Source of the DNA: Bilabrum cf. latius
Lineage: Eukaryota
NCBI GenBank assembly: GCA_965178125.1
Contig: OZ237761.1
Span: 496,001-560,000 of the forward strand
Length of the DNA: 64,000 nucleotides
Direction: 5' to 3'
Shown: one piece after another, positions 1-63,574 of the stretch
How positions within the stretch are numbered: the first letter of the stretch is position 1
How the letters are laid out: each line of letters starts with the position of its first letter
Notes under the pieces: model-generated
Databases searched by the model: none
What the model was told of the DNA's origin: nothing
The model's input: the letters and a program-made list of their open reading frames with translations, nothing else
Position numbers and translations under genes: made by a program

Positions 1-3000
1 AGTCGGCTCCGCCAGCAAATGCGCCTTGCACGTCCTCCATAGCCTCGATTCGCTCCAGCACCTCCGTCCACTCCTCATCATTGGCTCGGGCCTGAACAGG
101 GGCAGAGCCGAAGGCCCGGGGGTCTACGAGTTTCGGAGGCGAGCGAATCGCGTCGGGGAGCAGGCATTGGCAGGAGGTGCGGAGGGCGGACAGCGGCCCA
201 GTACGGTCGCCCGGCTCAGCAGATCGACGCAGCGATGCACCAGCATCAGCTGCAAGCGAATCTCCACCCGTGGAACCGCCATCGCTGACCATGGGATGAG
301 CAGTTGCCAAAGCCGCAGGCACCGAATCACCGGATCCACCCGAGCTGCCTCTACCCCTAGAGTGCGAAAACGACATGGATGCATCGTCCGGCAGGGGCTA
401 CAGCCGCATGCTACCCGACGGAGCCCGCCTTCTCCGGTGAGCGGGCTTGCCTGCCGCTGGCCCGTGGGAGCCCTCGTCTGACGTGGAAGTGCCGACGGAG
501 GAGCTAGAGACACCGGGTGACGAGACGCACGCCCCGAGACCGAGACTCGGCGAGGCTGCTTCCGCATCGCCGCGGGCTTGCCGCAGCTCAACGGATTCCT
601 TTCTGCCTAGCCGTCGCACTGCGGCAGCGGTGGTCGTACCTTCCTGCATGGAGGGCGATGACGAAACACCTGCCGACTGCTGCGAGCCAGCAGATCCCGA
701 GGAGACAGGTCTGCCACTCGTGAACCCGCTGCCAAGCCTAGGCTCAAGCTTGTCGTGGCGTGCAGGGCCCATGAGATCACGGAGTACGCCAGGACCGCGC
801 CTCTCAGCATCGGCGTTTGCGCGAATCGGCCCGGCGTTGGAACCCAGGGCTCGAAGCGTGCTACGCTTCGACCTTGGCGAGGGCATCTGCTTTGCGACCG
901 CAGGTGCCGGGCCCTTGGGGGGGCGCAGTCCGCGGCTCTCCTTGCTAGCCGTTGCGCTGCGACCGATGCTTAGTGGGAGCCCCCTGCGTGATCCCCGGGG
1001 ACTCGTCGGCGCAGACCTAGCAATGGGGCTCGAGGCAGGGCCAGAGCCGCTGCTCTTTACGGAGGAGTCTTCCCCGCTGGATGGTCTGCTCGCGGTCTTG
1101 CCGTCCCTTTGTCCCTGCCGCAGAGAGGCGGGCAGCCTTATGCGAGCACGAGCAGCTGCACGCCCAGCGCCGGACTGTGGGCTGCTGTCGGCAGATTTGG
1201 CACCGCTCGCAGGAGCACCACTCCTGATCCGGATCCGCTGGCCCAGGCCAGGCCGCCTGCCTCCAGGGTGTGCCTGGTTGAGAGGCGGAGAAGGGCGACC
1301 GGTCGGTCCAGCAATGCCGACATTGGAATGGTTGGCTTTGGGGGCTTCTGTGGCCGCCCCTGGCACCACCCCGCGGGCTCGCCTCGCGACCACGCGCCTC
1401 GCCCTCCTACCCGTCCTCTGCTCCGCGACAGAGGCGCTGTCGTCGCTGTCGTCAGAGGCGGCGCTCCCGCCTGCCATCGAGTCCGCGTCGTGATCGGACT
1501 GGTCTCTCCCAAGCCGCACTAGCACAGACTCTGCCTCCATGGCTGAGTCGGTCTCACCTGCTTCCGACTCCCCCCGGATGCCAACCAGATCCGGATCGAT
1601 TGGGGGTGAGGGTCCCGCAGCAGATGCCCCCCCTAGTGCAGGGGTTGCAGCTGCCTCGCGATCGCCACCGTCAGAATCGCCGTCATCTGCCATGTCCAAC
1701 GCGCCGTCTGCATCCTCTGCCGCACTCCTCGCCAGGCTGCTGAGGCTACTCTCTCCGCCCAGGCTACCTCCATCGTCACTGCCAGCCTCAACGTCCTCCC
1801 CATCCAGGGGGGGGGCGTCTGCATCTTCACCCGGCTCAGCCGCTTCGCCCTCAAGATCGATTGACTCACCGTCGTTGGTGTCGCCCGCGATAACGACCTC
1901 CTCGCCCTCCTGATCGACGGTGCCAGCGCCTGCCCCTGCCCCAGCACCGGCCTGATCGTCACCACTCGCGCCCTGGGGGCCACCTCCTATCGTTGCCGCA
2001 GCCCCAGCCGCGAGCAGGTCCTCCTCCTCTTCTTCGTCACTTTCACCTCCAGAGCCTACCCTGCCCCACGGCTTGCCGCTCGTCGGGGCGATGGCGTCCT
2101 TCTCTGCCTGAGCCAAGGCCTGATGCACCTTGATGATCGCGGTCTCGGCAGTGCCAGCCGGGTCACTGCCTGTGCTGTCACTCAAGGCAGCAGCGGGTGC
2201 AGCCCCGTCTCTCAGCAAATCCTCCTGTTGCTGCCGCTGCTGCAGAGTCCTTGCGATTGCCACGCGGGACCAAGCACCCGGCAAGGGATACGGGTATTCG
2301 TCGGGGACGGCCCAGTATCGGTACGAGTCTAATCGCAGGCCGGCAGGCCCCACCGCCACACCAGGCATCGCCCTATTGGAATGTTTGCCCGCCCTCCGCT
2401 GCTACTCCTGCACGACCAGCGAGGCTGCCTTATTCTGCTGCGACCCACGAACTGGCCACTCGAGCGCAAAATCGATAAAGCCAGCAGAGTCCATGGCGTG
2501 TGAACTGCTGCTGGATGGCGCCAGGCCGCCAAGAGCACTTTCATGTTCGTCGGGCCCGACTGCTACAGGGTCAAGGTCAGGAAGGTCTGCTCGTCCGGCC
2601 GGGAGAATCGCCCCGAATGCTACCAGCGGGCGAGGAATGCCAGCATTGCTCAGGCGCAGCAGAGCAGCTGCAGCCATCTCTGCCGCGCCGGCCAGCCGCC
2701 CCGTGCCAAACGAGCCGCCCAGCACGCCAGGAAAACCCACAGCGTATCTGTTCTCGCTCCCACCGCCACCATCCCCTGTACCTTTGCTTGACGCGCCTAC
2801 CTTGTTTGCCTCCTTCTTCTTGGCTCGAAGAGATGAGGCCCGGAGCCGGGCGCGGCCAGCAACGGTGCTGCCCTTGGCCTTGGATGCTGGTCCGCTGCTC
2901 TTGCCAACAGCCCCAGAGCCCGCGCGGCCGCGCTTGCCGGCGATTCTAGGAGACACGGAGCGCTTGCTCCCAGACCCGGAGCATTTGCTGCTGGGAGCAG

Positions 3001-5762
3001 CTGTCGCGCCCGCAGAACTTCCCGCCTGCTTTTTGGCAGCGGGAGCGGCCGGGCCTGCCTTCCTTGACGGCTGTCCCTGCTTCTTGCCACTGCCACTGCC
3101 GCCTCCTTTTCCTGCAGCCCCAGCGCTCGCCCTCCTCCCCCTAGCACTGCTGGCGACACCGGCAGCTTTCGGGATAATTAGAAGCGGGCGGCTGACCAGC
3201 CCAGGGCGCAGTGTCATCGGGACCTTCTCCTGCCTGGCGACGTAGTCGGCGCCTGCTGCCGTTCCTGCAAACAGAGCCCAGAGAGCTGGAAAGGCCCCTG
3301 CCATCCAAGCGGCCGGCAGCGCAGACGATCTACCCGAAGTGAGCAGCAACAATCGCGCAGCAGACACAGCGGCCGACGGGACGCCACCGTACCTTACGAT
3401 GGCCCGCGCTGCGAGGAGCGGCGCTGCGTCAGCCGGTGCTTGCCATGCGCACCGCACCCACGATGCTCCGCCTGATGACGACGAAAACGTCGATCCAGGA
3501 CTCGAACGAACGCCAAATCCGCCGCGGCCATCGGCCATTGCCGCTCCATCTGCACCCGACTGAGAGCTACCGCCAGACACACCCCCTGAAGCAGTCACCC
3601 TGCCACTCATGCTTCTCGACAATCCGAGCGAGTTCCGAATGCTGGTAGGCTGAGAAGTCGATCGAACAAGCTGCTCCGTTGCTCGGGCAGACCAACGGAT
3701 CAGTGTACCCGCGAGATCAAGCGCAGCTGCAACTACCTCCGCCCCCATGCCGCCCTTGGGCGGCGTGCAGCTCCCCTGCAGGGACTGCAGGAGCTCTCCA
3801 TCGCTGCTGCTGCTGCTTATCCCCCCTACCACCACACCGCCTACGACACCGCCCATACCTTTGCCTGTGGCTCCGGCAGATGGCGATGCGAATGACGACC
3901 GCCCCAGCCGCAACTGCACGTGCGCCTTGGCTATCCCAAGTGCCACAAGCCTGGCGTGCCAGGGCCCAACGATGGCCCGGTGACGCAGGCCATCTATAAA
4001 TTTGCCTTTGGCATCCCTGTCGCTACTACCTCCCACCCTCCCATCTCTGCCCCTGCCACTTTGTCCAACCCCAGTGCCACCCAACACGCTCCCCGCGACA
4101 GCCCTCCGCACCGCAACATCCTGTCCAATCAATCCATCCAGGGAGCCGTCCATCGAGGCGCCGCGCGCATCCCTCGCCGCCCTGGCCACATCGAGCACTG
4201 CAGCTCTGCGCACGGCCCACGGGGGCACCTGACCCCCCTGCACCAGCCAAGCGAGCGGGTTCCTCTGCGAGAACGAGTCTTGCGGATTCAGGTGCTGGTG
4301 CATCCGGGAGGCAGCCACGATTGCACGCGGGCTTTGGCGCCACCCGTGTGCTGCCTCCACGGATCCCTGGGCCTCCGACGACGAAGGAGGCAGGGACGGT
4401 CCTGCAAAACTGAAGGATCCGGTTCTAGGGCTGCTGCTACCGGCGCTCCCTAACTCGGGTCCAGGTCCAGGTCCAGGTTCAGGTTCAAGTCCAGGTCCAA
4501 GGGGTCGGCTTGCACTCGCCCGTGGCGAGTCCAATACGTGCTGCAACGGGCTGCCGTTCAGTATACGCAAAGCTCCATCTGCTGCAGTTGCCAGCGGCGG
4601 ATGCGGGGGCAATTCTGCCCGGAGTATTCCGAGCACTTTTGCGACCAATCCCTTGCGGAGCACCTGCTTGATGTTCGTCTCGTTCCTCTCGACGAAGAGC
4701 CCTAGGAGGCGAAGCGACAATTTCTGCAGGGTTTTGCGGACGCCCCTGATGGCTCCTGATGGCATGGCGTCTACAGGAAGCAGAGGACTATCAGGAATCT
4801 CCACGGAAGTGGCAGCAGCAGCAGCAGCCCCGGCCTCTGCCCCCTTTCCATCCGGGGAGGCAGCAGCCGACGATGATTTGCCTTTACCTTTGCCTTTGCC
4901 CTTTGCCCCTGAGGAAGATGACTTCTTGCCTGCGTTCGCAGCGAAGATCCTGCGCTCCCTCATCGCCTGCGCCTCCTCAACCAAGATGCCATCGCGGACC
5001 ATCTCGTCCGAAGAGGCCTGATTCAGCACGGTGAGGAGGGCGTCGAAAGAGCCCTCTAGGCGAGCAATTAGGGCGATACTGGTGTTACCGCCCTTTCCGC
5101 CGCCACCCCGTCCTTTCCGGGACCTGGCCAGCCGTTTCACCAGCCGCTTCGGCATGCCCTTCGCTCCCTTTCGACCCCCCTTCGACTTGCCGCCCGAGGA
5201 CTCATCGGCGGCTGCACTGCCAGATGTGGCGCTCTTCTTGCCTCCAGAATGGACTACACCAGCAAGGCGCGCTCTTGCGGCCCTATGGCACAATGGAAGG
5301 AGCGAGTGGAGCAGTCTAGGCCTCCTCGAATTGGCAGCCAGGATTGTCAACAGTTTTCGCAGGCCACAATCTCTCTCCAAGGCGTGCTGGCGCTTTGCTG
5401 CAGCAGAAACGCAAGAGGGATGCAGGCGAATCGATCGGAGACGAATGGAGCGTCACGGCGAAGCGACGCGTAGTTTCAAGCACTGTCGTAAGCTGCGTCT
5501 CACTCTCAGTCTGTGTCAGTCTCTCGAGCACCTGGCAAGTTAGGGTCATGACGTCAATACTACCTGCAGCTACATCTGGCCTGGCCATGCTGAGAGAGAG
5601 GCATAGCCTCTCTACTGCGCCAGCTCTTACCAGGGCCTACTTTCCCTTGACTGTCAAAACCAAATCTGCAATGGACTACAAACCACTGAGTACCACAGCA
5701 AGCGAGCTGGAGGGAAGCTAGAGTAATAATCCGCGAGTCTGATCGTCTTGCGAGGAGGCCAT
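1..5762 (-). CDS. Large protein with ARM-like N-terminal helical repeats and long low-complexity regions (3' end runs off the window)
   Basis: ATG at 5762 is in frame with ORF 5316..5588 via TAGs at 5718, 5676 and 5637 (MASSQDD...KGK*ALVRAGAVERL). A probable intron at ~5387-5456 (boundaries uncertain) joins ORF 2402..5380. TAG at 2402 joins ORF 398..2368 in frame, and after TAG at 398 the frame stays open to base 1. Confidence 0.7.
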
Positions 5763-5913
5763 GCCGCCCCTCTGCACGGAGAGATCCGTGTCTCTTGAAA
5801 ATGTGTCAACCGTAGTGGCGCTGCGCATTCGGCCGTGGTCGAGGTTCCGCAAATGCAAGTTGCTGATGTGACTGCACCAATCAGCGCACTTCGTTCAGCC
5901 GGACTGCTCTGAC

Positions 5914-7530
5914 ATGAGAGTCAATGCAATAGCATCAACGCTGTTAGCACTATTGAGTGTATCTACTCACGTTTTTGCATCACAAGGCCCGGGCGTGCGA
6001 GCCACACTAAGCAGCCGCGGGCTGTCGTACATGGCAGCCCAGGCCAAAGAGCTTCTGATCGAAAAGTTCTCTGATTTTAGCGTTCCTGGCATGGAATCAA
6101 CGCATAAGTCTGTTCAGGTCACGGTAGGAACGGTGACTTGCTCTGGTTTTCGGGTTGGCAAGCTAGACTTCTCGGTTGTTCCGAACCAGGGCTTGCGAGG
6201 TTCGATTTCTGGGCTGGCTATCAAGTGCCAGGCTTCGTGCAAGGCCCGAGAAAAAATCTGGCCGCATCCATACGTGAAAGGCACGTGTGAGGTGACAGCA
6301 GATGCTGGCCAAGCCTCCATTACCCTAGATGTCGGGCGGAATGCGTCGACCGGCCTGCCAACAGTGCGCTCTCCGCAAGCGTCTGTCTCGTTGGGAACTC
6401 TCAAGATCAAGCTCCACGGATCTTTCTGGAGCTGGCTCGTCAACTTTTTCCTCGGTCTATTCAAGGGCAAGATCAAGGACAGCATCACGGGCAACATAGG
6501 CCCGACGGTTCAGTCGTTCGTCAACGACGACTTGAATGGCATGCTGCAGAACATCGACGTGAACCTGCCCTTGAAGTTCAAAGCCCCGTACGACATCGCC
6601 GCGGTGCGATTCGGCCTCACCAAGACGCCTACGTTCGGGAAGGACTTTGCCGCCTTTGACCTGCAGGGGGACGTCTACGACATCCGGGAGCCCGGGGCCC
6701 AGCAGCCGTTCGTGCCTCCGCCCATCCCGCAGACGAGCAACCTGAGCTCCACCCACTACCTGGCGGGCTTTCTGTCGGGGTACACGTTGGAGACAGCCGC
6801 GTGGGTTTTCCAGCGCGCCGGGCTGCTCAAGCTCCCCGTGAACCACGACGTGGTGCCTGCCAGCTTCCCCGTCGCGCTCAACACCACGGACCTGGCGGCA
6901 GCCGCCCCCGAGCTGCTCGTCAAGTACCCGGGCATGTGGGTGGACGTGAATGTTTCACTGGCCACCAACACGTCGATCAGCTTCCAGAAAGGGCTGGCAG
7001 AGCTGTCTGCCCCCATCGAGCTGGTGTTTGCCGTGGAGGACACGGCGGGTCGCTCGGGAGGGGCCTGGGAGCACGTGCCCGTGTTCACGCTCGGCTGCAA
7101 CATGAGCACTGCGCTGTCGATCGACATCCAGCAGGAGGGCTACAACCAGACGCTCAGGGGCAACCTCAGCTACCTGGAGTGCCCCGTGCACGTGGTGTCA
7201 TCCAACGTCGGCAACGTATCCGTTGGGCTGCTCAAGTCATTGGTGGACTTCCTGCTGCCCGATGTGGTGCTCCCAGCAGTGAACATCCTCTTCAACGCCG
7301 GGCTGCCGCTCCCGCGTGCCGACGGGCTGGCGCTGACCCACACGTTTGCCGGCTTTGACCAGGGCTTTGTGCAGCTGGCCTCTGATTTCACCTGGAACCC
7401 CGACGGGGGTCTGGTGTCCAAGGGCGAGGGGCCTGCCCACGGGGCCGGCCTGCCAGTGCAGCTGCATGGAGGCAGGGTGCAGGAGCAGGGGTGGGAGGGG
7501 CTCTAGCTTCGAGGGGCAAGGGGGTGGTGA
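5914..7530 (+). CDS. BPI/LBP/CETP-family lipid-binding protein, secreted
   Basis: Signal peptide followed by GPGVRATLSSRGLSY, typical of the BPI N-terminus; two-domain length (~530 aa). TAG at 7504 read as sense gives ...EGL*LRGARGW then TGA at 7528-7530. Confidence 0.8.
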
Positions 7531-7861: not shown

Positions 7862-8370
7862 TCAAGTCGTGCCGGCTGCTTCTGCGTTCGGATCCTATAC
7901 CACGATAAGAAGAAACTCCTTGTCAGGGGCTACCAGAACTTCATTCTTCCTCGATCGAACTCGCAAAAACGTAAGCTCGTTCGTACTATCCACGTGCCTC
8001 ACAGCACTTCGTGCCGAGGAGCAGAGCTGCAAGGTGCGATAAAATCCGATCAATTTGGATTGCTAGTCTCAACTACATCATGGTGAGCAGGCAGCAACTT
8101 GAGGGAGCAAACGCATGCATCTCACGGATGAAAACAGATCAGCATATTTCTTAGTAAGCTCGGACGACATCGTGCTTCGCAGAGGCACGCCATCGTAGTT
8201 AACAATCAAAATTCCTTCAACGCCCCGATGGGACTGGATTCTGCGTAGTGTCTCCTCAACCTCGGCAGCCTGCGTGCACAGGAACTAGTTCGACGATACA
8301 TAGGTTGGCGTGCTGCAGCCGAGCAATTACTTCATGTTGAAGGGAGGGCAGCGATCAAAACTCTTACCAT
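7862..8370 (-). CDS. DYNLRB: Dynein light chain roadblock/LC7 (3 exons; absent from the ORF track)
   Basis: Exons 8370-8368 (ATG only), 8269-8126 and 8026-7862; GT-AG introns 8367-8270 and 8125-8027. Protein: [102 protein letters not shown], collinear with roadblock (…[27 protein letters not shown]). TAG at 7895-7897; TGA stop. Confidence 0.95.
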
Positions 8371-10978: not shown

Positions 10979-11164
10979 GTCTTGCAACACCATTTGTATC
11001 GGATTGATCTTGCCCAATGTGTCATGCAATGACTGCATTCCATCCGCACCAGATCCGCACTCACCATTGGATGCTTCGCGGAACCTCTCGAATTTCAAGT
11101 TGCGCGGCGACACTTTTGCTGGGTGGAGGTGCCCAATAGATCGCTTGCATCTCAGGCTTGTATC

Positions 11165-13258
11165 ATGGCAGCAGCAGGTGGTGCGAGCAGTGGTAGCAGC
11201 GGCGGAAGTATTGATAGCACAAAAGGTCTGGGCGATCATGCTAGCTGGATGAAAGACGGCGAGAAAGAGCTTGCAAAGCTGCTTCTTGAGCTGGACCAGG
11301 GCCACCTGTTCCAGTACTGGGCGGAAGGCGCCGACGAGGACAAGAAGCACGCTTTCTTTGAGCATGTTAGATTATATTGTGGTAGTTCTTGCCTGTGTGA
11401 CGCGGACAGCTCGGAGTTTGCTTGTCCGTGCGTGATTTGTGCGTGACGCGTACCCTGTCGAACAGTCAGCAGATCCACTGTGCTACCGGCCAATCCGCAT
11501 TTGTTTGGTTCGCGGGTCTACCCATTGTACCAAAGTCCAACCATTCGATGTCGACTGACCTCGCAGATCCAGAAACTGGAGAAGAATTACCCCGGCGGCT
11601 TGAAGGCGTACGTATCCAACGCAAAAGAGCTGCTCGCCTCTAGCAAGGCCGGCGATAACCCGTTCGAGGGCATGAAGCCTAGCGTGCCAGAGGGAGAAAA
11701 GCTATCGTTCGGCAGTGACGACTTCGTCGCTGCGGAGCAGGCAGGCCTGAAGGCATTCCGCGATGCCGCCATGGTGCTGGTGGCTGGCGGGCTGGGCGAG
11801 CGCCTGGGCTACGACGGCATCAAGGTGTCTCTGCCCACCGAGAGCGTGACCGAAACCAGCTACATGGAGCTGTACTGCAAGCAGATCCTCGCTCGGCAGG
11901 AGGCGAGCAACAAGCTGGCGGGCGGGCCCCCCAAGCAAGTGCCACTCGCCATCATGACATCGGACGACACCAACGCGAGGACGCAGGCGCTCTTTTAGGC
12001 ACACCAGAACTTTGGAATGGAAGACGGGCAGGTCATCATCATGAAGCAGGAGAAGGTGGCGGCGCTCATGGACAACGAGGCGCACATCGCGCCCATGGAC
12101 GGGAACCCCTACGCCATCCAGACCAAGCCGCACGGGCACGGCGACGTGCACCAGCTCCTTGCGCAGACGGGCCTGGCCAAGAAATGGGCCGAGGAGGGCC
12201 GCACGCACGTGATCTTCTTCCAAGACACGAACGCCCTCTGCTTCCTCGTGTCCGTGGCTGCACTTGGGGTGAGCATCGACCGCAAGTTCGAGGTCAACTC
12301 GGTCGCTGTTCCCCGCAAAGCCAAGGATGCGGTGGGTGCGATCACCAAGTTGGAAAAGGAGGACGGCACCTCTCTCACCATTAACGTCGAGTATAACCAG
12401 CTGGAGCCCATGCTGAAGGCTTCAGGGTATCCCGATGGTGACGTGAACGATGACACGGGCTACAGCCCCTACCCAGGGAACATCAACCAGCTTGTGTTCT
12501 CCATCCCTGAGTACGCCAAGGTGCTCGAGCGGACGGGCGGGCTGGTCCCCGAGTTCGTCAACCCCAAGTACGCGGACGAGGAGAAGACCAAGTTCAAGAA
12601 GCCCACGAGGCTCGAGTGCATGATGCAGGACCACCCCAGGTCTGTCGGGCCCGACGCGCTGGTGGGCTTCACGCAGTTCGACGACTGGACCTACAGCCCG
12701 GTGAAGAACTCTATCGAGGAGGCCGTGAAGAAGTTCAAGGCCGGCGTGCCCGGGCGGTGTGCCTCCGAGGGCGAGTTCGAGGTGTTCGAGTCGTACGCCA
12801 GGCAGTTCCGCATGCTCGGAGCTGACGTGGCGGAGCCCAGCGGGTTTGATGTGCACGGCATGGCGGTGCAGAGGGGCCCACGAGTGGTGGTCGCCCCTCG
12901 CGTGTCTCCTGACTTCTCCACGCTCAAGGGGGTGCTCGCCAACCCCGACAAGATCAAGGTATCTGCCAAGAGCACTCTGGTGCTGGACGCCACCGAGGTG
13001 GTGGTGGAGGGTCTCGAGCTGGACGGTGTGCTGGTGGTCAAAGGCGACCCGGGAGTGAAGGTCGTTTTGAGGGACGTGAAGGTGGCCGATGGCGAGTGGA
13101 AAGAGGAGAGGCTTGAAGACCTCGAGGACAAGGGGGAGGGCGAGCCGGACTGGGTCAAGATCAGGGGGTTCAAGCTCAAGCGGGAGGGCGGGGTAGTGGT
13201 CAAAGTGGCGGGGTCCCCCGGGGAGGAGGTGGTGCTTACGGGGGAACTCACAGCGTGA
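11165..13258 (+). CDS. USP: UDP-sugar pyrophosphorylase
   Basis: Exon 1 11165-11365, intron 11366-11566 (GT...CTGAC...CAG), exon 2 to TGA 13258. Motifs [64 protein letters not shown]. In-frame TAG at 11996-11998 inside the catalytic domain. Confidence 0.93.
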
Positions 13259-13530
13259 TGCAGTGGTGAGCCGCGGCGCTCGGCTGGCTCCAATTCGCAG
13301 CTGTGGCATGGAAACGCTTGGCTTGCCTTGGCTTGGCGCTGATCTAGATCTAGTGCTTCTCTTGCTGTAACTGCTGTTGGCCATGACTCATGCCTCAGCT
13401 TCCTGCACAGCTCAGCCTTCATGGTACATACTCATTTGACGGGCTGCTTCCCCTCGAGGTATCCAAGTTGCGTGCCAATCCGGTATTGCAGCGTCGCACT
13501 GCAGCCAGACGCGCACTACGCAAGATAAAA

Positions 13531-14670
13531 ATGCGATCCCTCTTGGTCCGTATGGCTGCAGCTGCATTGTTGGCGCAATGTAATGCGCTTGTGAGCATTA
13601 ATGCATCGCTGGCTACCCTGCCAGTGGTGTATTTCGGTGGCAATAATGCATCGCGTCCTGACGAGAACATTGCAATGCTGGCCAAGATGCGCGCCGTGAT
13701 GATCGAGAAATGGGAAGGGCCTTGCTGGAATGAATGTATTCACAACAATACGCTCGGAGCTCCTTGCGATCCTGCTTGCGGAGGCGAGTCGTACATGCTC
13801 GATACGCTGAAGCGCGTGAAGCGTGCCAACCCTGCCGTATCGACGGGTTATTATCAAAACTCCCTTTTCGATTGGAAATTCCAAGCCCTCGAGAGCAAGT
13901 TTGAGGCCCAAGACCTCAACCAGAGGTCTTTGAACGGGACTGAGATCGGTATGGAGAACGACAACGGAATGATTGGGGTACCCGTGTTCGCGCATAGTAA
14001 AACGGCGTCAGTAGACATGTGGCTGGACTGGCACAAGCAGCTGGTAAGCACTGGCATTGTGGACGGCACCTTCATGGACAAACCTGACGTGTTTGCGTTC
14101 AAGAACGGGAGTGTGTGGAACCTGTGCGAGTGCGCGACTGGGCCGTGCCACCACTCATGGAGACAGGCCTGCGGCGAGATCTCGGCCGAGGTCGGCGAAG
14201 CCTACAACGCGGGAAAGCGGCGGCTGCTCATCGAGATTTAGAACATCTACCGCCCGCTCGGCGGCTTCATCGCCGCCTCGGTGAACGGGTCCGCGAGGTA
14301 CATTTTCGGCGCGGAGCGGCTGCCCACCAAGGACCTTATCGGGCAGATGCAGGAGATCAAGACGGACCCCAGCCTGGACTACATCTGGATGCCGGTGCGG
14401 GACCAGAAAACCGACTGGGACCCTCAAGACCTGCAGGGCAGCTGCTCGGAGGACTTCGTCGCAAAGTTCCTGGTCGTGGTGGAGGAGGGCGGTCTCCTCG
14501 GCTGCAATGGGTGGCAGGACGAGTACGGCAACCCGCTGGGCAATCCCAAGGGGCCGGCCACCTAGGTGGGGGACGTGTACACGCGCACGTTCGAGAGCGG
14601 CACGGTGGCTGTGTACAACGACAAAACCAGAAAGGGGAGCGTAAGGTGGGGCCCAGGCAGCACTGTTTGA
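13531..14670 (+). CDS. Secreted putative glycoside hydrolase (GHL15-like TIM-barrel family, tentative)
   Basis: Signal peptide MRSLLVRMAAAALLAQCNA; VMIEKWEG, VKRANPAVSTGYY, VDGTFMD, C-terminal PLGNPKGPAT*VGDVYTRTFESG. In-frame TAGs at 14239 and 14563; TGA at 14668-14670. Family assignment is from recall. Confidence 0.6.
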
Positions 14671-14785: not shown

Positions 14786-17215
14786 TCAGCTGCTCTACTT
14801 CTGCAGCCCCATCACGTCCCCAGGCCCCAGCTTGCCGCCATGCTCCTGAAGCACACGCACGCACCCATCGTGCCCGCCCACTACAGCAGCCAGCATTGGC
14901 GACCCCATCGCCCCCCCACTCACATCGCCCATGCGCTCCAGCCCGCCTGCCAGCTTGCCCAGCCTCAGCCGCTTGTCCAGCTCCATGGGCCGCCCGTGCT
15001 TGGCCGCGTTGAACACCATGGCCGCGTCTCGCTGGGCCTCCACGGCCCTCCTGAATCGGGCGAGGTGCCACGCCCTTTGGCTGTACTGCTGGATGAGCCG
15101 GATGGTGCGGTTGTACCGGTCAGTAGACACATTGGCTGCCGTGATCTCTCTGGGCACTTGGGCGGGCGTGCGACCGCTGTTGCTGTAGTCCTTACTGGCT
15201 GGGTTGGCGCCAGCCTCGAGCAGCAGCTTGGCGCACTCGTACTGTCCACTGGCGGCGGCGATGTGGAGCAGACGGTCGAGGTCTCCGATTCCATCATCCG
15301 AGGCATACTCATCGTCATCCCAATCGTCGGGAGGAGCATCATGAGCCAGCAGCATGCGCACGAACTCGGCATTGCCCTTGGTAATGGCCTTGTCTAGGAA
15401 CTCCATCACGTCCCACCTTGACAGCTTCCCGGCGTCCATCAAGACCTGCAGCATCGCAGTATTGCCTTCGTCCATCATTTCGTCGATCGCGTCCTCCATC
15501 TCGTCCCAGCAGAAGTATGCCTCTTGGTCCTTCTCGAGCAGCAGTCGAAGGCACTCTGCATGCTGGCCTTGTAAAGCCACTTCTGCAGGCGAGATATCCC
15601 CATAATCTAGTGCGCAGCAGTCCGCGCCTGCATCCAGCAAGGCCCGCACGCAGTCCGCATGGCCATGTTCGCTTGCGAGGTGCAGTGGGGTACTGCCGAA
15701 CCAGTTCCCCTCATCTACCTTGCTGACGAGCTTGAGGAGCAGCTGCAGGCAGCTGATTTGACCAGCCTTCGCCGCGATGTGGAGAAGGTTCTCATACTTT
15801 GGCTCTGAGCCACGACGATACCAAACCATTGCATCGGGAGGTACTCCATCATCTAGCAGCAGCTGCAAGCACTCGGCATGCCCGTTCTTTATGGCTGTCT
15901 TGGCAAGCCAAGGCTTCTAGTCGTCCTCATCCTCATCCTCGTCCTCGTCCGTATCCACGTGTTCAATTGCATCGAGCATGACACGCATGCAACCACTATG
16001 GCCAAAGCGAGCGGCTACATACAGCGGACTGCCTCGATATAGTCGGCGTGTACCCGTGGGGCTGATCCCCGACTCCAGCAGCATGGTCACTGCGGGCAGC
16101 CACCCATGCTTAGCAGCTGCGTGCATGATACTCGGCCCGTCCTAGCAGCGAGCACGCAGATCAGCGCCGGCCTCGATCAGCCGCCTGAATGCGAACTCAT
16201 TCTTCTCGTTCAGAGCGAGCTCCAGTGGTGACACCATCCTGTTGCACTGAATGTTCAAGCCCACCCTGGGCTGGGCCAACAGGAGCTCGACCGCCGCATT
16301 CCTCGATGCACGGATGGCACGGTGCAAAGGGGATTCCCCTTGGCGGTCTTGGGCGTTCAGGTCAGCGTTCGCATCGATGAGCACCTGCATGATTGGTATG
16401 TACTATCTGCATGCTGCCTCATGTAAAGGGGTACTCCCCGTGCATTCCTTTGCACCAACATCAGCGCCTCGCTCGACCATGGCTGCGAACACACGTCCAG
16501 CCTAATCCATGTCTGCGCCGTTGTCCAGGCACCATATCATCCTGTTCAGCACGGAAGACGCGCCGCACCCTGGAGTATTGATGTCGACTCCATGGCTCAG
16601 TAGCGCATCGATCATCGCAGTCCATGCTGTGCTGCACCACCAGGTGGAGTTGATGGCGGCGGTAAGCGGGCAGAGGTGCCCGCTCGCACCTGGATCTGGA
16701 GGACACAGATCTGCCCCGGCCTTGAGCAGTGCACACACTACATCGGCATGGCCATTGCCAATAGCCAAGTACAAGGGAGGCCTAGACTAGTGACCACGGC
16801 GTCCCTTCTCGACGTCAGCGCCAGCCGCAAGAAGTGCTCGCACACAGGCCGTGTTCCCGCACACAGCAGCGAAGCATAGCGGGGAGATACCATGCTTGCT
16901 CTCGGCATCTATGTGCGCACCAGCATCAATGAGGGCCACAACAGCACCTTCAATGCCCAACACGGCGGCGAAGTGGAGCGCTGTAACTTGTTCGAATGGC
17001 AAGGCTGCTCGGTATTGAGTTGCATACCTTCCTAGTACTGCTCTTGCGCGCCGGAAAGCCAATTGGATTGCATTATTGCGAGCATCACAGGAATGGTAGG
17101 TGGCGTTTGGGTCCTCCATTCCTGCATGAAGCACTGATTGCAGTTTGTCGACTGCACCGTCGAGTGTGCTCTGTATCACCCGAGAATCGCGTCTGTGCCT
17201 GCTAGTAGCAGACAT
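14786..17215 (-). CDS. Ankyrin-repeat protein (~809 aa)
   Basis: Five same-frame ORF pieces are joined by TAGs at 16787, 16502, 16403, 16142 and 15917. A further TAG at 14795 precedes TGA at 14786. Many repeats: TALHFAA, SPLCFAA, PPLYLAI, STPLHEAA, ESPLHRAI, STPLHLAS. Confidence 0.85.
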
Positions 17216-17588
17216 AGCAGTAATGGCAAATATTCAGAAATAAAGATGCACTGCCTTGTTGCGTGAATTGACTTGACTTGCCCGTGCGGTAAATGGAGGA
17301 GCAGGGTGTCTGCGTAGGAAACCGGAACATTCAAGTTGTCAGCCATGAAGCAGTTGCTCGGAAGCCCACACGTGTCATAGACTGGAAACAAGCAGCTGCA
17401 GGAAAACAGACCAATATTGTGCGGCAGTTGGCGCTGATGCGAAAAGGTTATGCTGAAGCTTCGCATAGCGACATGAGGACTTGCAAGCGGTCACGCCGAG
17501 TCGAGGCCCCATCACATGGTCTGTAAATCAAAGCTCTTTGACCTGATCTACGAAACAAAGCACCTGCCCGAGCAAACTCAGAGTCCTA

Positions 17589-18420
17589 TCATGTCACGAG
17601 CTGCTGCAGCCCCATCACGTCCCCAGGCCCCAGCTTGCCGCCATGCTACTGAAGCACACGCACGCACCCATCGTGCCCGCCACAACAGCAGCCAGCAGAG
17701 GCGACCCCGTCGCCCCCTGCACCGTTCATCCAGTATCCAGAGCCCGCCGCTACTAGAGCAGGATCAGTTGCTTGGAGCAGGACATGCAGGCAGTCGGTTA
17801 TGACCTACCTTGAGACAGAGGTGCAGCGTGCTTTGGCCGACTTCAAGGGAAAAGCAGCAAGTTGAGGCCAGCAAGCCAGCCGGGTCGCACAGCGTAGTGC
17901 AAAGGTACCGCCGACGTTTGGTTGCAACAAGCACCGCGCGTCCAAGCCTGGATCCGTCTTTATGCCCATTGCGACGGTGATTTCGTGCAACACGGATCGC
18001 GTTGATCTACCGACCGCGTCTATGCTTGCCCCGTGGTCTAGCAATGGGCTGAGGAGCCGCATGAAGGCATCGTGAATTGACGACAGCGTGCAGCGCTGAA
18101 TTCCACGTACGACTGGGGACATCACGCATGCGCCCGCCATAAGTAGCAAACGAACAATGTCTACATCACGAACGAGGATGGCTGCATCCGAGGGGCATCG
18201 AGCTTGGTTTCCAGGTGATACTTCAGAGGACGCCCTAGCGGGAAGGGGCGCCCGCACGCATCCATTATTCCAGCGCACAGCTGCGTAGTACAAATGTGCC
18301 AGTTCATCCTATGATTGGGTATCTTGTCGCGAGAATGCCGATATACTGCACTCGCAGCCAAACACGGCAGCGAAATGTAGCTATTGCAGTGCCACTGCTT
18401 CGAATGGGCAAGTCAACATT
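17589..18420 (-). pseudogene. Degenerate tandem paralogue of the adjacent ankyrin gene
   Basis: 17604-~17716 is nearly identical to 14801-~14913 but has a 1-nt deletion (cccgccacaac vs cccgcccactac). The 5' part PFEAVALQ*LHFAAVFG...LYYAAVRWNNGCVRA resembles LPFEQVTALHFAAVLG...LCFAAVCGNTACVRA. Much shorter than the parent and eroded; 5' limit approximate. Confidence 0.65.
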
Positions 18421-19137
18421 GCATCCCTCGCTATCCCCAAGATATGCACGAAATTGCGAGAATTTTTCTGTGAACGTGTTGCACTCATCCTCCTGCTCCT
18501 CAGAATAATAGCTCTAGTCCTGCTTCACATCGCTAACAGCGAGCCTAGCTCGCATCGTATCTACTATGATACTACCCGAAGGCCACGACAGTCTCAAGCT
18601 CGCCATAATGAAAACAAGTTTATTGATTGATCTTCAATACGGTTGCGTATGCTGCACACGCGCGAGAGAAGTCTTCCCGAGCATGATGAAACCGGAACCG
18701 ATTCAAGAAAAGAGGGAATTGGTCTTCACCGCACCTGGCATCGCAAACTGCTGTTGCTGGTAGTGCTACACGTGTAGCAGCTTCACTAACCACGGGCGAT
18801 CGGTGCTCCATGGCAAGAGTAGGCAGTGCAAAGGCAGGCAAAAGCAATGCTAAGGAAGGCGGTGCAGAATCACCGGCACACCCTCACCACCAGATGTGGG
18901 AGCTATATTCTCTGGTGAGCATGAGGCATTAATTAATATGCCATACGTGATTCGGTGGTCATGTTGCGGCGCGGTGATAGGGAGAGTTGCTGTGTCTTGC
19001 CGCATTTGAGAGACAACTCGAAGCCTAGGAGCCTCATCCATTGCCGAGTCGAGCTAGACTGCGAGCGAGGAAAGTTGTACATCCGCATGCATATCGCGTC
19101 ACAAGTGCCGTGTATTTCTGCCGCCGGTTCTCTTTCC

Positions 19138-20658: not shown

Positions 20659-20822
20659 TGCTTTGGTCTTTAAGTATCACGGGAAGGTGTTGATTGGATT
20701 TTATCTTCATTTTCCTTTTTTGATTGGCGGTCGGTTACAACCGCTTTTCGGGGTCGTCGAAACCGAGAGTGCGCATCACAGCCACGCCCGTGGACAACTC
20801 TGTCCATCCGTTGGTTCGCGAC

Positions 20823-32729: not shown

Positions 32730-32789
<60 letters not shown>

Positions 32790-44800: not shown

Positions 44801-47772
44801 GCGGTAGTGCGGGCTCACAGAGCGACGCAGGAAGGAGTTCTGATCCCTCCGGGGACACTAGGGAGGGTCCATCTCTCTAGGAGCAAACGCATGCGAGTGC
44901 AAAGATGGATTTCTCGAAGCAGGTCGGGGACGGCTCACCGGAAGATTGTCATGGATCGTACCGTGTGTTCCATACAGCAGAATGTCCGGCGCAGGCTGGT
45001 TAGGGTACGCTTGCGGCCGCACAAACTAGTCAGAACGCACCTGTTCCGGATGACACTGCTCCGAGCTCGCCTGCAGCGCATGATCACGGAACGCAGCTGA
45101 CTACAGTTGTAACACGCGAACGCCGAGCTAGCTTTTCGTCGCAGCGAGGTCTTGAAAGGGTCCTTAGCGAGGCAAAGAATCGCAAGGCCAGGTCTAGTCT
45201 CATGTCAATCGGGAACTCCTGGAGGTCTGCAAGGTCAAGGGTGCCATTTGCAGCGAAGGCTAACGAGCACAGCTCTGACAGCAGCCACGTGGGTACACAC
45301 AACGCTTCAGTTGGGTCTGCTACTCCAAGGCAAGAGGCCCATTCCGTCGCGGCGACCGAAGCTGTTGGTGAGCTCCACGGATCGGTCGCAGCACCAAGTG
45401 TGGCAGAGACAGCTGCCAATACGCCTAGGTCTCGACTCATCTATATGCAGCCAGTGGGTGCTGAGCATCCGTACGAGTCCTCTAAATCCTCATTAGGAGC
45501 AGAGACAGGCCTTGAGGCTCATTCAGAGGAGGAGACAAGGGGAGCAGGCGATGATTCTGGCGAGCATGGTGCAGCAGGGGCGACAGTTCGAACTGACATC
45601 GAGGCAAGGCAGTCCGACGAGAAGTCCCACGGGGGGCTAGATGAGCACTACACGCCAAGTGCTCTGCAAGCAATCGGTGTGGACGCGGAGCAGCGGCGTG
45701 CTCCCGACTTGATCCTCCCCGAATCCGGCGAGGCTACCGAGCGGGTCAGCAAGAGAGAGCCTGATTAGCGAAGCAGCGGATCCGATGCGAGCAGTAGCAG
45801 TTCGGTTGAAGAGTAGAACAATGGGCAAAACAGCGATCAAAAGGCGGTTTTGCAGCCCAGCAGCTCGCCTGCCAGGCGCAACAGCAGCAGTGACAAGAGC
45901 CGCCCCTCCTGCAGCGATGCCAAAGCAGGCGACACTGTCGAGAATGAGCTGCAGCAACCTGACACGACTCCTGCCATGCGCCGATGGAGTTTCCTCGCAG
46001 AACAGGAAGAAACAGTGAGATAGCTTGCATCCGCGTCTCTCTCGTCCAGCGTTGCCTCTAGGCGGTCGACCCCGCCGCCCCCGCCACCGAGACAGCTTGC
46101 AGCTCGGCGTGGGTCCGAGCCACGCGCGCCTGATTTCCCCTCTCCAGAAGTGTCCAACTCCAACATTGTGCCGACACCGACCGCCCCAAACAGTGGCACA
46201 CAGGCTAGCGGTGGATTGCAAACCCAACAGACAGGTAGCAAACCCCTGACAGCCGGAGAGAAGAGGCGACAGAGGGCCTTGGAGAGGCGCAGGGCCATGC
46301 AAATCGACTCCGCTTCCCCGCTCGCTAGTCCTGGGTCCTCTGCGTCGCCACTTCAGTTGAAATGGCCCGGAGATCAGCATCGCGGGGACAGAGACGCGAT
46401 ACACGATCAGCGCACGGCAAGCGCAGCGAGGCGGCGGCCATCGTCAGGCAGGTCTTCGGCGGGTGAAGAGTCATCGTCAAGCGAGGGGGATTCGTCGACT
46501 GGCAGTTACCAGAGGCATGGGACAGGGCAATCTAGGCCTGTCAATGCAGCACTGGCAATGGGACGAAGGCGCAGGCGCAGATCGGGAAGCAGCCTTTCGA
46601 GCAGGAGTACTTCTACAAGCGACAGTGAGGCCGCCTCGAGCCATCTATCCAGTGCACTCGACGGTGTCAGCAGCACCACTAGCAGTCGAAAAGACGAAGG
46701 GATTATGCCCGCGCAACACTCTGGCACTTCACCAGCAAAGCGAACTGACATCGCACCAGCTCGAGAAGCCGCCGATGTGAGCCACTCTGATGTCGCGACT
46801 AGGCGTACCAGTCGGACAGCTGAGCAATCCAAGGAGAAGGAGAGCCAATCCTCTGCCGAGATACCTGTAAGAGATCTCGTGAAGTTTAGCTTGATTGCAA
46901 GCAGCGCTGACGAGTCTGTAGGCGTTGCTGCGGGAGACGAATCTGATGCCGGCAGCGAGGTTGACTCAGATGGGCACGCTCAGGTAGATGCAGAGGCTCC
47001 TCCTCGCTTGCCGCCGTCCGTGATTTCTTCCTCCTCGCCCACTCCGAGCATGGATGAATCGGTCAGGGCAGGCGTGGAATCCATGGCATCAAGGGCCCAA
47101 GAATCTCAGCTACCAGCTTCATCCGAGCAACGAGGCACACACGGTGCTGGTACGGTATCTGTCGAGCCTGCCATAGAGGCTGAGCCCGCATTGGCTGCGC
47201 AAGCCTAGCCGGAGGCCCCGGGGACGACTGTCCAAAGCGGTGCAACTCCTTTGACACCGGCCAAGGTGTCCCTTGCTCGACTTCGCTCGCCGCATGGCCA
47301 TGTGGTGGAGCAGGGTGCCCTTCGCAAGAATCGCCTGGCGCAGATCGCCAACGGAGTGCGGAGCACCATTCGGCTGTCCAAGGGAAGCAACAAAGCAAGT
47401 GAATCGCGCGCAGCTAAAGCTCGAGACTCCTCCAGAGCTGGAGGCGAAATGCCTGCGGGTCTGCCCCCTCGGTCCAAACGAGCGCCGGAAAGTGCGAGTG
47501 CCGCTGCTGGGCGAGTCAGTCTCAAGGAAGCCAAGAGGAGGCAGAAGCAAGAAGAAGCGCCTTGGGAAGACGCATCTACTGTGCTGTCTGAGACAACTGC
47601 ATCCACGCTGAGAACCACGAATCAGCCTTCCTTCAGGATAAGAGAGACTGGACCTACGTTTGGATCACTTCTCCCAAGGGGCTCGACCGCCCAAGCGCTG
47701 CTTTCCAGCAAGCTGGCCGAGGTCCGGCGCCGAGCCATGCTGAGAAGTGAGGCGGGTGATGCCGAAACGTGA
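38823..47772 (+). CDS. Giant (~2,900 aa) protein with N-terminal PX-like domain(s), a central PH-like domain and Ser-rich disorder
   Basis: Intron 39201-39294 gives SWRVYRSSNAIRALHDA|LCDGH..LEPPP (PX-like); possible intron 39006-39110. The frame is free of TAA/TGA from 39205 to 47769 and holds 23 TAGs. PH-like block ~43520-44040: LLKEGQALRK..VVRLA*VIEARRG..ECFHIVLTGGKTLNFQATDLVSRNEIVDAI. Confidence 0.8.
40876..40995 (+). repeat. 60-bp tandem duplication (2 copies) in coding sequence
   Basis: ccgaatgctggcacagttggagagtagcaggc.tctcgccagct.gaagccagggtgatg x2, encoding PNAGTVGE*QASRQLEARVM; two third-position differences. Confidence 0.9.
42967..43218 (+). repeat. 84-bp tandem repeat (3 copies) in coding sequence
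   Basis: Copies start at 42967, 43051 and 43135; each encodes SDTSDRG(S/N)NRRRRGKQASAGSLSLDGES. Confidence 0.93.
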
Positions 47773-60125: not shown

Positions 60126-63100
60126 TCACGAATAGTCCAATTCAATCGCCCCGCGCAGGCTGGCCCCGCCGTGACCCCACCCAGGGCACTGGATGCTTAT
60201 CCGGTTTGGCACACCCACACGAGCGGGCAGCTGCTGGAAGGTCGCGGCCTTGCCATTCACAACTACTGACCTGACCTGGTCCGGTTCACCGTCACGGAGC
60301 AAGACCACGATACTCGGGCACTAACCCGCTGGGACAGGTGCCCAGTCGATGTTGACGCACGCAGCACCAGCACTTGCCTCGCTTCGCAAACCGCTCTGTG
60401 CGCGCCCGTCACCAGTGCAGCTACCCAACTTCCTGGACACGTTCAGCAGCGGGCTTGAGAAAGCCCACTGGTCCTAATCATCAAGCCTAGCCGAGATCTA
60501 GATCTACCCCGCTTCAAAATGAGCACCGACAATTGCGGGAAGCCGCAGCTGCGCGGCCGCGTGCGACCACATGTTGTGCAGCTGCCAGTCGGCAACACCA
60601 CCCTGCCCCGCTGCTGGCACGCCCGGGCGAATGTAGTTATCAGAGCCCGTCCACGTTCCTGCCAGAATATCAGGGTACACCAGTGCGTGGTTCGCGAACG
60701 AGTTTTTCTTCACTTCGTCCCAAGCCGTGTCCGACAGACCCATCTTCCCGAGGGCCTCGACGTACGGCATGATGCCGCAGGGCCATGTGTTCGCGTAGTG
60801 CCCTTGGCCACCCCACGCAACGTAAGACTGATTCGTGAATTGCGCACCGATTGGGGAAGGGTCCCGCAGCCCAGATTGAATGGACCCCAGCACGTTCTCA
60901 ACCAGTGTTGCAGCACCAGCGGGTGCCTGCTATGGCACACCGGCCAGCAGGGCCCACGCGTTGGGTTCAAGCCACACGGCAGAGTCGTTGCTGCGGACCC
61001 CCGGTGGGCACGAGCCTGCGCTGCAACCTATCCATCCACTGCCCGGGCTGATCCAAGCTCGTCGGTAGTACAGCGGAGTTCCGTCAGCAGCCCGGTTCAC
61101 GGCCGCACGATTGAGCGAGATCACCAGCTCGCTGGCAAGACGATCCATGGCAGCCGCCCTGGCGCAGAGTGCCAGAGACGGGTCTGCATCGCATGTAGTC
61201 GACGTAGTCACCTCGACCGCGAGCCGAAATGCGTCTGCGGCGGCAGGCAGCATGTAAGCAGCCATGGCAGAATTCATCACTGTCTCCCCCTCAGTCTTGA
61301 GCTCGTCGCACTGGTCTGTGGTCAGGCCAATCGAGTGGCAAATTCCGTCGTTATGGTCTGCGAGAACAAGATGGAGACGTGAAAAGTACAAACGACACCG
61401 AATGATAGACTGCTAAAAGCGCCGCGCAAGCAAGTATCATTCGTGGCAGGCAGTAGAGCGGCATCATCACAGCCTTGCTTACCCATATGCAACATCTTGA
61501 GAAGGCCATGCTACCCTTTCCCAATGATAGTGTCGAGGCGCTGAAATAGCCACCAGAGAGCCTCGTGCAGCGGTACCCTGGCGGATGGCCCAGGGGCGCC
61601 AGCTGGTCCGGGCTCACCATGCTGGCTCACGTTGCGAGACAAGTTCTTGAACAGCACACCAACATCTCTCGTAGAAAGCACGTACCGCGCAGCAGCACCG
61701 AGCGTCCAGATCTCTAGGTCACTGGGATGCATCTACCGGCCGAGCGGGCTCGTGTAGTTCTCGCTGTACACCTGCCCGAACGTCTGCACGCCCCAGGGCA
61801 TGGTCCAGGCCGCATCGGCTTGCTGGATGGAAAACCGCACCATTTCAATCGTCGAGCCGCGACCGAGCGCCGACTCACTCACACCATAGCCAGAAGACTG
61901 TGCCCGATGCTCGTTCTGGCCAGCCTCATGGTGGAAGTTGTACACGAGCGGGGCGACGTGGCCGAGCGGGTCACGGATGGCACCTTGGAAGCCTGCGTGA
62001 TACTGGTACACCCCGGCCTGGTTAATGAGGAAGCCCTGCCAGAACGAGTCGTACGACATCGCGCCTCGGGTGTAACCTGCCTGCCATACCTGCTCTCGCT
62101 CTGCCCACGCGGCTGCGTCAGGGTCTCGCTTCGCGTCGGGCTGAAACCGGATACCGGTCGAAGCGAACTTGCGCGAGCTGGCCGTGAGCCACAGCGAAGC
62201 CCCACCCGGGGATGAGTGCGCTTGGAGCAGCGGTGCGATGAGGCCCACGGCTCCGCTAGGTGACTCTGGGACGCCTGGTGGCACGTACCCGCTAGCTAAA
62301 TGCAGCTGAGCTGCAAGGCCAGAGCCGATCATGCCATCTCCTGCATCGCCGTCCAAGGCATACGATGCAAGCGGTGCCTGGATGGCGAGCGATGTTGATG
62401 GTCCCGCAGCTGCACCGTCTGTGCCATCAAGAGGCTCTACAACCCTGGGCTGGTCAGGGCGCGACGAGTCCGGAAACAGAAACGTTCCGTTGGCAGACAC
62501 GGAGCAACCCCCGAAATCTGAAGTGGCCTGTGCTGTGGTACTAGCGCCATGCTTCGCGCCGGGTGCGAGCAGGACCAGAAACTGCGGCCTGGGGTGTTTG
62601 TCGTGCAGCGAGGGGGTTGGAAATTGTGACGGCCACGCATCCAAGCTTGATCCTGCCGCTGCTTCGGTCTGTGAGTGCGACAACGGCACAGCAGACGGCC
62701 CCGCCGCTACTGAATGGTCGTCGCTCATCGATGGCGCGGTTATCTGGTCGAAGAGCAGCAGCGCTAACGAGTCGGCAGGGCACGGGGCAGAGCTGCCTAC
62801 CAAGGCAGGGGTTACCGCGTATCCTCCAGGCAACCCGCCCTCAGTAGCCTGCAGCAGACCTCCGGGTCCTCGCCAAAACGTGCTTCTCACGCACGAGGCC
62901 GAGACGTTGTGGCCCCACGTTCGGCTGGCCTCGGTGTTCCAGCCCGTGGGAAGCAGCTCCTGAGCCAGCGTGGACCAGACCTCCGTATAAGCAGGAGGAT
63001 TGCTTGAAGTAGCCATCAATGCGGCGGAGACTGACACATTCACCTGGGACACGACGAAAGGAACGTCTCCAAATGGAGCTTGCACGACGTGCGAAATTGA

Positions 63101-63574
63101 AGCCGTACCTGCGCCTGCCGCTGTTGTCTTGCTTGCCTGTCCGACCCCAAACCGAATATTTAAATCTTTGCATTGACCGCCATCTGCAGTGTGGACTGGA
63201 CAACGGGATGAGGCTGCGATTCGGTCGCCTGCAGACACCCACCCCGCACCGCCCCGGAACTGCTTGAGAGACGCATCGAAGCCGTTCATGAGCTTGGGTC
63301 CACCCTCATCCTAGCGCAATGTCACAAGACCATCGGCTGCGCACAAGGCGACTAACCTATCGTTGCCAAACTGGTGTAACAAGGACCCGCTCTACGACTC
63401 GTTCGAAGCCCCGAGATAGGATACCGCAGGAAGAATGCCATCAGGTGTCGACCCCCAGCTGCCCCACATGTTACTCCCAGGACTATTATGTGGGCTATCT
63501 GGTTGCCCAAGAGATGGAACCAGCTGGGTCAATGCCAGTACGCATGCCGATATAATGAACCTGCAATAGTGCAA
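60126..63574 (-). CDS. Secreted GH94-like (alpha/alpha)6-barrel glycoside hydrolase/phosphorylase
   Basis: Signal peptide MHYCRFIISACVLALTQLVPSLG. Intron 61482-61358 gives G*HGLLKMLHMDHNDGI, spaced like the GH94 GxHGLxxxxxxDWND motif; also RDPLGH, SDLEIW, GETVMNS, WLEPNAWALLAG. Nine TAGs (63392, 63311, 61733, 61511, 60930, 60504, 60498, 60474, 60321); TGA at 60126. Confidence 0.72.

Follow-up and report, generated by a model that had tools for sequence, protein, structure and literature searches.

A nuclear genetic code that very probably reads UAG as glutamine or glutamate and keeps UAA and UGA as stops

Gene content and in-frame TAG codons

The 64-kb stretch of contig OZ237761.1 that was analysed here (hereafter the window) has a G+C content of 55-67% along its length and carries, as judged from Pfam matches, protein-coding genes of eukaryotic type on both strands. 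Pfam families were assigned to an LBP/BPI family member, a PhyH protein, a ricin-B lectin-domain protein, UDP-sugar pyrophosphorylase (USP), a GHL15 protein, ankyrin-repeat proteins, a triose-phosphate-transporter family member, a TKL-type kinase, enkurin, MSH6 and an RCC1-repeat protein, and several very long frames match no Pfam family. Most of the reading frames contain the triplet TAG in frame. The observations described below make it very probable that the nuclear code of this organism reads UAG as an amino acid, either glutamine (Gln, Q) or glutamate (Glu, E), that UAA and UGA still terminate translation, and that the same change extends through a clade.

Nineteen stop-to-stop frames were rebuilt with TAA and TGA as the sole stops, being chosen by length, G+C content by codon position and Pfam matches. 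They comprise 18,547 codons with 90 TAG in frame, and 15 of the 19 contain at least one. The figures agree with a preceding inspection of the letters (the sequence-only reading), which had counted about 90 TAG in 15 of 19 gene models. One extra TAG lies outside the 19 frames, in the roadblock exon (7895-7897, minus strand). Four of the 90 come ahead of the initial ATG in their frames (enkurin codon 2, big3 codon 1, unk2 codon 8 and big2 codon 23) and may belong to an untranslated region or an intron, and the decayed ankyrin paralogue (17589-18524) contributes another four; with both groups set aside, about 82 TAG can be considered safe. The genes and exons concerned are:

2-5452, minus strand: unk1, no Pfam family, runs past the window start; 1,817 codons, open only with TAG read; in-frame TAG at 2402-2404 and 398-400
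5872-7530, plus strand: LBP/BPI/CETP-family gene; TAG at 7504-7506, 8 codons upstream of the TGA
7865-8068, minus strand: roadblock/LC7 dynein light chain, last exon; TAG at 7895-7897 within LIVV-TAG-DP
11447-13258, plus strand: USP main exon, Pfam UDPGP; TAG at 11996-11998 (codon 184)
13387-14670, plus strand: GHL15-family gene; TAG at 14239-14241 and 14563-14565, both in the Pfam stretch
14786-17233, minus strand: ankyrin-repeat gene, Ank_2 252 bits; six TAG (lowest bases 16787, 16502, 16403, 16142, 15917 and 14795, the last 3 codons upstream of the TGA)
17589-18524, minus strand: decayed ankyrin paralogue, possible pseudogene; four TAG
21484-23568, plus strand: TKL-type kinase main exon, PK_Tyr_Ser-Thr 199 bits; TAG at 22093-22095 in the kinase domain and, in frame in the tail, at 23287, 23344, 23524 and 23530
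26781-27719, plus strand: enkurin gene; TAG at 27330-27332 and a second at 26784, ahead of the first ATG
28447-33198, plus strand: MSH6, MutS domains I-V; TAG at 28702-28704 and 31321-31323, the latter in MutS_III
33366-38645, plus strand: RCC1-repeat gene; five TAG (35967, 37536, 37893, 38007 and 38013), none within the repeats
39205-47772, plus strand: big1, 2,855 codons, 23 TAG; conserved domain at codons 1427-1640; orthologues P0124, L001, L002, P0131 and P0134
47884-52488, minus strand: big2, 1,534 codons, 14 TAG; terminator TAA
52780-60060, plus strand: big3, 2,426 codons, 13 TAG; N-terminal ankyrin repeats
60126-61436, minus strand: unk2, 3' part of a gene, no Pfam family; six TAG
61322-63601, minus strand: unk3, 5' part of the same gene as unk2 or of a neighbouring one; four TAG

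The summed length of the 15 longest open reading frames (ORFs) was 9,237 amino acids under the standard code, 18,516 with TAG read as sense and 12,108 with TGA read as sense; reading TAA as sense gave 9,318, an increase of only 81. With TAG as sense the longest ORF grew from 1,016 to 2,855 amino acids. At the composition of the window, the probability of 1,500 codons without TAA or TGA is about 1e-10, and six frames are longer than that. In the two off-frames over the same 18,547 codons TAA occurs 41 and 71 times and TGA 263 and 332 times, against none of either in frame, where their absence follows in part from the way the frames were defined; the corresponding numbers for TAG, 142 and 139 off-frame and 90 in frame, are of similar size. 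Eighteen of the frames end within the window, 16 with TGA and two with TAA. A code in which UAA and UAG (together UAR) are both sense does not agree with these data: the TAA reading barely lengthens the frames, and no in-frame TAA occurs in the environmental relative L001 (see below). What is found is UAG in frame in conserved regions of many genes, with UAA and UGA absent from the frames and used at their ends.

TAG codons within conserved domains

Several Pfam domain matches run through TAG codons. The UDPGP stretch of USP (codons 97-297) includes the TAG at codon 184, the GHL15 stretch (146-406) those at 285 and 393, the PK_Tyr_Ser-Thr stretch of the kinase (29-231) the one at 204 and the MutS_III stretch of MSH6 (811-1140) the one at 959, and five TAG fall in the ankyrin region of the gene at 14786-17233. 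In residue-by-residue alignments with solved structures, USP, the kinase, MSH6 and the roadblock exon were gapless across the TAG. The TAG position was aligned through when USP was compared with 9uml (E = 7.7e-147), the kinase with CTR1 (E = 3.6e-48) and MSH6 with human MSH6 (E = 2e-104); the roadblock exon matched solved roadblocks with E = 6e-15. The TAG at codon 184 of enkurin is located 14 residues ahead of the Pfam stretch, yet within the structure alignments, and three of the five chains shown were gapless across it. These results bear out the observation, made already in the sequence-only reading, that in conserved regions of USP, MSH6, the TKL kinase, enkurin, roadblock and the ankyrin repeats frame and alignment continue past TAG.

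MutS domain V of MSH6 (32700-32800) carries an inserted run of about 20 serines as well as acidic runs.

Relatives with in-frame TAG codons

Protein fragments of close relatives were found for USP (P0004 and P0129, 99% identical), big1 (P0124, 84%) and big2 (P0125, 96%; P0126, 93%; P0128, 92%; P0127, 87%). P0124 ends directly before the window TAG at big1 codon 237, P0128 directly before that at big2 codon 421, and the end of P0126 falls at a window CAG (big2 codon 716). Because these three proteins end at such sites, their strains carry in-frame stop-like codons as well.

When JGI metagenomes were scanned by alignment with the conserved domain of big1, two loci (L001 and L002) were found, at 65% identity. 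L001 (4,138 bases, 55% G+C) consists of a single frame of 1,379 codons, which contains 16 TAG, no TAA and no TGA; in the other five frames of the locus there are 7-17 TAA and 21-35 TGA. L002, which comes from a separate metagenome record, is 99.88% identical to L001 across 1,692 bases, and its frame has four in-frame TAG, as has the matching part of L001. With no more than 36% identity to the window at third codon positions, L001 must be regarded as a distant relative. The statement of the sequence-only reading that internal TAA and TGA are lacking, which in the window holds by construction of the frames, is thus independently true of the 1,379 codons of L001. A more distant orthologue of big1, P0131 (36-38% identical), is an uninterrupted protein of 2,145 amino acids on a 23.6-kb contig, and its lineage may mark the outside of the code change. 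Taken together, the sequences indicate that the UAG change is common to the relatives and is a trait of the lineage rather than of one assembly.

A metagenome scan with a segment of big2 yielded 594 pattern matches and a scan of prokaryote genome contigs 17, with no relative among either; a word-based search for big1 homologues returned one match from 8,000 candidates, low-complexity words dominating. P0133 and P0132 are pieces of the one open frame of L001. For P0124-P0128, P0132 and P0133 public collections have fragments only, cut at TAG by standard-code gene calling.

Amino acid specified by UAG

Relatives at least 84% identical cover seven TAG sites of the window. They have E at USP codon 184 and big2 codon 393, Q at big1 codon 233 and big2 codon 795, and L at big2 codon 777, the remaining two sites being the ends of the relatives' predicted proteins. 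For the comparison with L001, a site was kept if at least 8 of 21 surrounding residues were identical, and weakly aligned rows were dropped; this filter left four of the nine window TAG sites that the main alignment covers and three of the 16 L001 TAG sites. The partners of the window TAG codons of big1 in L001 are E (codon 1138), GAG (1547), CAG (1570) and H (1656), and the partners of the L001 TAG codons in the window are AAG (1508), CAA (1515) and CAA (1605). A mixture of E, Q, L and K partners, together with TAG sites that change fast from one relative to the next, would fit an origin of TAG from CAG, GAG, TTG and AAG codons, each one mutation away, at positions that are tolerant.

That UAG stands for glutamine only, as in Iotanema and some ciliates, comes close to being an even proposition. 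In the roadblock exon the TAG aligns with Q in all five solved homologues shown, all of them metazoan, and of seven residues tried at this position the Robl_LC7 model scored best with Q (33.4 bits), followed by L (33.2), Y (32.8), K (32.4) and S (32.1), with E and W lowest (31.6). At a divergence at which synonymous sites are saturated, two of the three L001 TAG codons that were kept correspond to CAA and one to AAG, and the window TAG codons include both a CAG and a GAG partner; the close relatives contribute the Q residues of big1 and big2 and the end of P0126 at a CAG. Glutamine is also the commonest meaning to which UAR or UAG has been reassigned among the cases listed in PMC11687900. Against it stands the USP column at codon 184, in which 120 homologues have E 84 times, A 16, K 6, R 5, S, Q and D twice each and V, T and L once each; in the nearest 24 matches this column is more variable, with chiefly E and A, and both 99% identical proteins, P0004 and P0129, have E. 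Codon 1547 of big1 is matched by E in three of three homologues (L001/P0132, P0131 and P0134), E is also the partner at big2 codon 393 and big1 codon 1138, and a TAG of the decayed ankyrin copy is GAG in the intact copy within 78 otherwise identical bases, although the former copy may be a pseudogene.

The same sites argue for glutamate only, with UAA and UGA as stops, a combination absent from the listed known codes, which we regard as possible without calling it probable. If only the TAG sites of the window are counted, a rough likelihood comes out 4.7 natural-log (ln) units higher for E than for Q, and the balance of Q and E in close relatives would be better explained by a synonymous transversion set against a non-synonymous transition than it would if TAG meant Gln. 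The roadblock column and the CAA, CAA and CAG partners in the L001 comparison speak against glutamate, and no D was found among the partner residues, one paralogue excepted. When the likelihood was restricted to the TAG sites of the relatives, or to close relatives only, Q was favoured by 2.5-2.7 ln units. Pfam scores give glutamate no advantage: with UDPGP, GHL15, two kinase models and MutS_III the scores with TAG as E and as Q differ by at most 0.5 bits, and the ankyrin models conflict (Ank_4 +4.1 for E, Ank_2 -1.9). The ankyrin consensus positions carried no E/Q signal. Three TAG columns are variable and uninformative, namely those of MSH6 (S in human), the kinase (I, P) and enkurin (A, K, K).

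Under a rough likelihood using BLOSUM-derived conditional probabilities, Gln and Glu were at most 4.4 ln units apart with all weightings tried; the Glu/Gln difference ran from +4.4 to -3.7 ln units, its sign being set by the weighting of the USP column and the roadblock site. All other residues were at least 11.7 ln units behind. Gln and Glu are thus supported with about equal weight and the constrained columns are split between them, so that the preference for Gln expressed in the sequence-only reading is not established. Firm signals in both directions from constrained sites would also be expected from ambiguous decoding, with one suppressor tRNA charged by both synthetases or with two tRNA(CUA) species, and manual parsimony counts come out the same whichever of the two meanings is assumed. 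The same split would, however, arise if TAG occupies positions where either residue is tolerated, Q and E being among the commonest exchanges, and the sample is small; we consider dual decoding improbable.

Leu, Ser, Lys, Tyr or Trp, each one anticodon change away, are unlikely meanings of UAG, and as a group we give them hardly any weight. L was seen once (big2 codon 777) and K once (big1 codon 1508), besides K in two distant enkurins. K, the next-best residue, was 11.7-18.5 ln units behind the leader; Leu and Ser scored below the fourth-ranked residue, itself at least 17 ln units behind. No S, Y or W occurred at well-aligned sites of near relatives, and L was present at one of the five residue-bearing sites of close relatives and at none of the well-aligned L001, outgroup or paralogue sites.

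Two further estimators were tried and rejected. A model of neighbour-residue context placed L, Q, E and R within 2.7 ln units of each other, and its control ranked Q first in 4 of 20 trials. Per-gene covariance gave Q as the best residue, but its control failed, as 10 of 11 test codons received a non-synonymous best partner. At the codon level, the per-gene covariance shows TAG to track rare codons ending in A or T in general.

Comparison with known codes

Almost always UAA and UAG have the same meaning (PMC11687900), and the UAG-only pattern, with TAA and TGA retained as stops, is rare in the same source; the sequence-only reading had recognized this pattern in the window, and it holds. According to the list in PMC11687900, UAG codes for Gln in the fornicate Iotanema spirale and also in Hartmannula sinica, Trochilia petrani and Protocruzia tuzeti. 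As in these organisms, UAG alone is reassigned here and UAA and UGA terminate, and Gln, along with Glu, is supported by the present data. Unlike them, the present genome is GC-rich (0.55-0.67), has canonical GT-AG introns, an oxygen-dependent PhyH dioxygenase and flagellar genes, and is placed near bicosoecid stramenopiles by the sole gene tree; nor is Gln established here. A code with UAG for Gln and with UAA and UGA as stops corresponds to NCBI translation table 15.

Glutamate is found as the meaning of UAG, together with UAA for Lys, in one uncultured oligohymenophorean ciliate (PMC10553269 and PMC11687900). There UAA is sense, whereas here it is a stop, with no in-frame TAA and two of 18 frames ending in TAA. 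Both UAR codons mean Glu in peritrich ciliates and Blastocrithidia (cases given in PMC11687900 and PMC12153298). A change from stop to Glu may be common to these organisms and the window, but in them UAA and UAG change jointly, in Blastocrithidia along with UGA, and here UAG alone is affected. Changes of UAG only are also on record for an uncultured rhizarian and the TARA phyllopharyngean ciliates, where it means Leu (PMC11687900 and PMC5304391), and for Scotinosphaera, where it means Ser (listed in PMC11687900). Neither meaning fits well here: L was seen once at close relatives and S only in distant homologues.

Alternative explanations and mechanism

Some points weigh against the conclusion that UAG is a sense codon of one meaning and UAA and UGA are the only stops. 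The amino-acid signal is contradictory under a single meaning, with Glu indicated at USP codon 184 and big1 codon 1547 and Gln in roadblock and at the CAA, CAA and CAG partners of L001. The absence of in-frame TAA and TGA from the window is partly a product of frame construction, and neither a tRNA gene nor an Rfam match was found within the 64-kb window. Furthermore, four TAG (14795, 7504, 23524 and 23530) fall within 15 codons of the end in three genes where 1.31 would be expected (P = 0.044); those of the ankyrin and LBP/BPI genes are 3 and 8 codons before TGA. This mild excess leaves room for some termination at TAG, and it is what would be expected if context decided whether UAG is sense or stop, the situation in Condylostoma and karyorelict ciliates. 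The late TAG may equally be former terminators that translation now passes on its way to the next TGA, which predicts the same pattern. With frames defined by TAA and TGA, a TAG terminator would be invisible in the frame set. On balance context-dependent termination seems unlikely. Even less can be said for the possibility that TAG is not translated and comes from errors of sequencing or assembly, from pseudogenes, from short introns or from codons edited at the RNA level: 15 of 19 frames are affected, and by TAG alone, relatives from other samples and records also carry in-frame TAG, the alignments have no insertion at TAG sites, and the positions vary between relatives as those of codons do. 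We consider this explanation highly improbable.

By analogy with other reassignments, the preferred reading of UAG as Gln or Glu would involve a cytoplasmic tRNA with the anticodon CUA, derived from tRNA-Gln or tRNA-Glu, and a release factor eRF1 whose recognition of UAG was lost or weakened. The clade having the change would comprise strains whose proteins are 84-99% identical and a deeply diverged environmental relative, among which TAG codons would turn over fast, mostly at tolerant positions.

If the residue is Gln, the assignment is already known elsewhere; if it is Glu, or both, it is a new type of assignment. UAG for Glu with UAA and UGA as stops is not among the cases listed in PMC11687900, as consulted in part. 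It is a real, if tentative, possibility that UAG means Glu (or Glu and Gln) with UAA and UGA as stops in a clade of GC-rich flagellates, probably stramenopiles, that had so far escaped notice. In that case the clade would span lineages with saturated synonymous sites, with a standard-code outgroup in hand. Every independent UAG-only case is a test of how UAA and UAG are uncoupled through tRNA wobble and eRF1 recognition, and this one would fall outside the ciliates and in a GC-rich genome. The graded series of relatives (99%, 84-96% and 65% identical, and a distant orthologue uninterrupted under the standard code) is suited to dating the change and to watching TAG appear. In practical terms, standard-code gene calling breaks 15 of the 19 genes here.

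Lineage and gene structure

The closest named USP sequences are those of Cafeteria roenbergensis (57% identical) and Bicosoecida sp. ms1 (53%). In a FastTree tree of 66 of 121 aligned sequences (best-scoring matches plus the named ones, support values not read) the window USP adjoins the clade containing Cafeteria. This hints at an affinity to bicosoecid stramenopiles, a lead from one gene tree and not a placement. Enkurin and roadblock indicate a flagellum. In the literature searched, with supplementary files outside its scope, no nuclear UAG change was reported for stramenopiles, bicosoecids or comparable flagellates; the supplements of PMC11687900 and PMC5304391 may name additional lineages with such a change. 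The suggestion in the sequence-only reading of an independent, undescribed origin is therefore plausible as regards the lack of a literature report for a comparable lineage, and is weakened in that the position of the organism comes from a single gene tree. The stretch is contained in 12 sequencing runs, none of which is listed as RNA.

Introns are scarce and of the canonical GT-AG type. They were seen at roadblock, where the GT-AG borders are visible, and USP, the kinase, MSH6 and the last gene are likewise implied to have them. For the first three of these, as for roadblock, short upstream exons sit in different frames. The upstream and partner exon segments are:

8081-8326 and 7865-8068: roadblock
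11033-11443: upstream of the USP main exon
20724-21218: upstream of the kinase main exon
28161-28802: MSH6

The overlapping frames of unk2 and unk3 are probably one gene split by an intron (60126-63601, minus strand). Neither had a sequence match in PDB or Pfam; motifs such as HGLL...ADHNDG and WLEPNAW may resemble those of (alpha/alpha)6-barrel glycoside phosphorylases.

Other sequence features

The two ankyrin copies (17592-17700 and 14795-14900, minus strand) share a stretch of 78 bases identical except for one (TAG in one and GAG in the other), and its flanks are far more diverged; it looks like a patch of recent gene conversion. In big1, exact or near-exact tandem peptide repeats are found at 40880-41000 and 42950-43230: a unit of 20 residues in two copies, each with a TAG, and a Ser/Arg-rich unit of 28 residues in three copies. 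Two acidic, Asp/Glu/Gly-rich frames on the minus strand (25178-25462 and 25986-26552) have a coding-like G+C distribution over codon positions, and the second contains an in-frame TAG.

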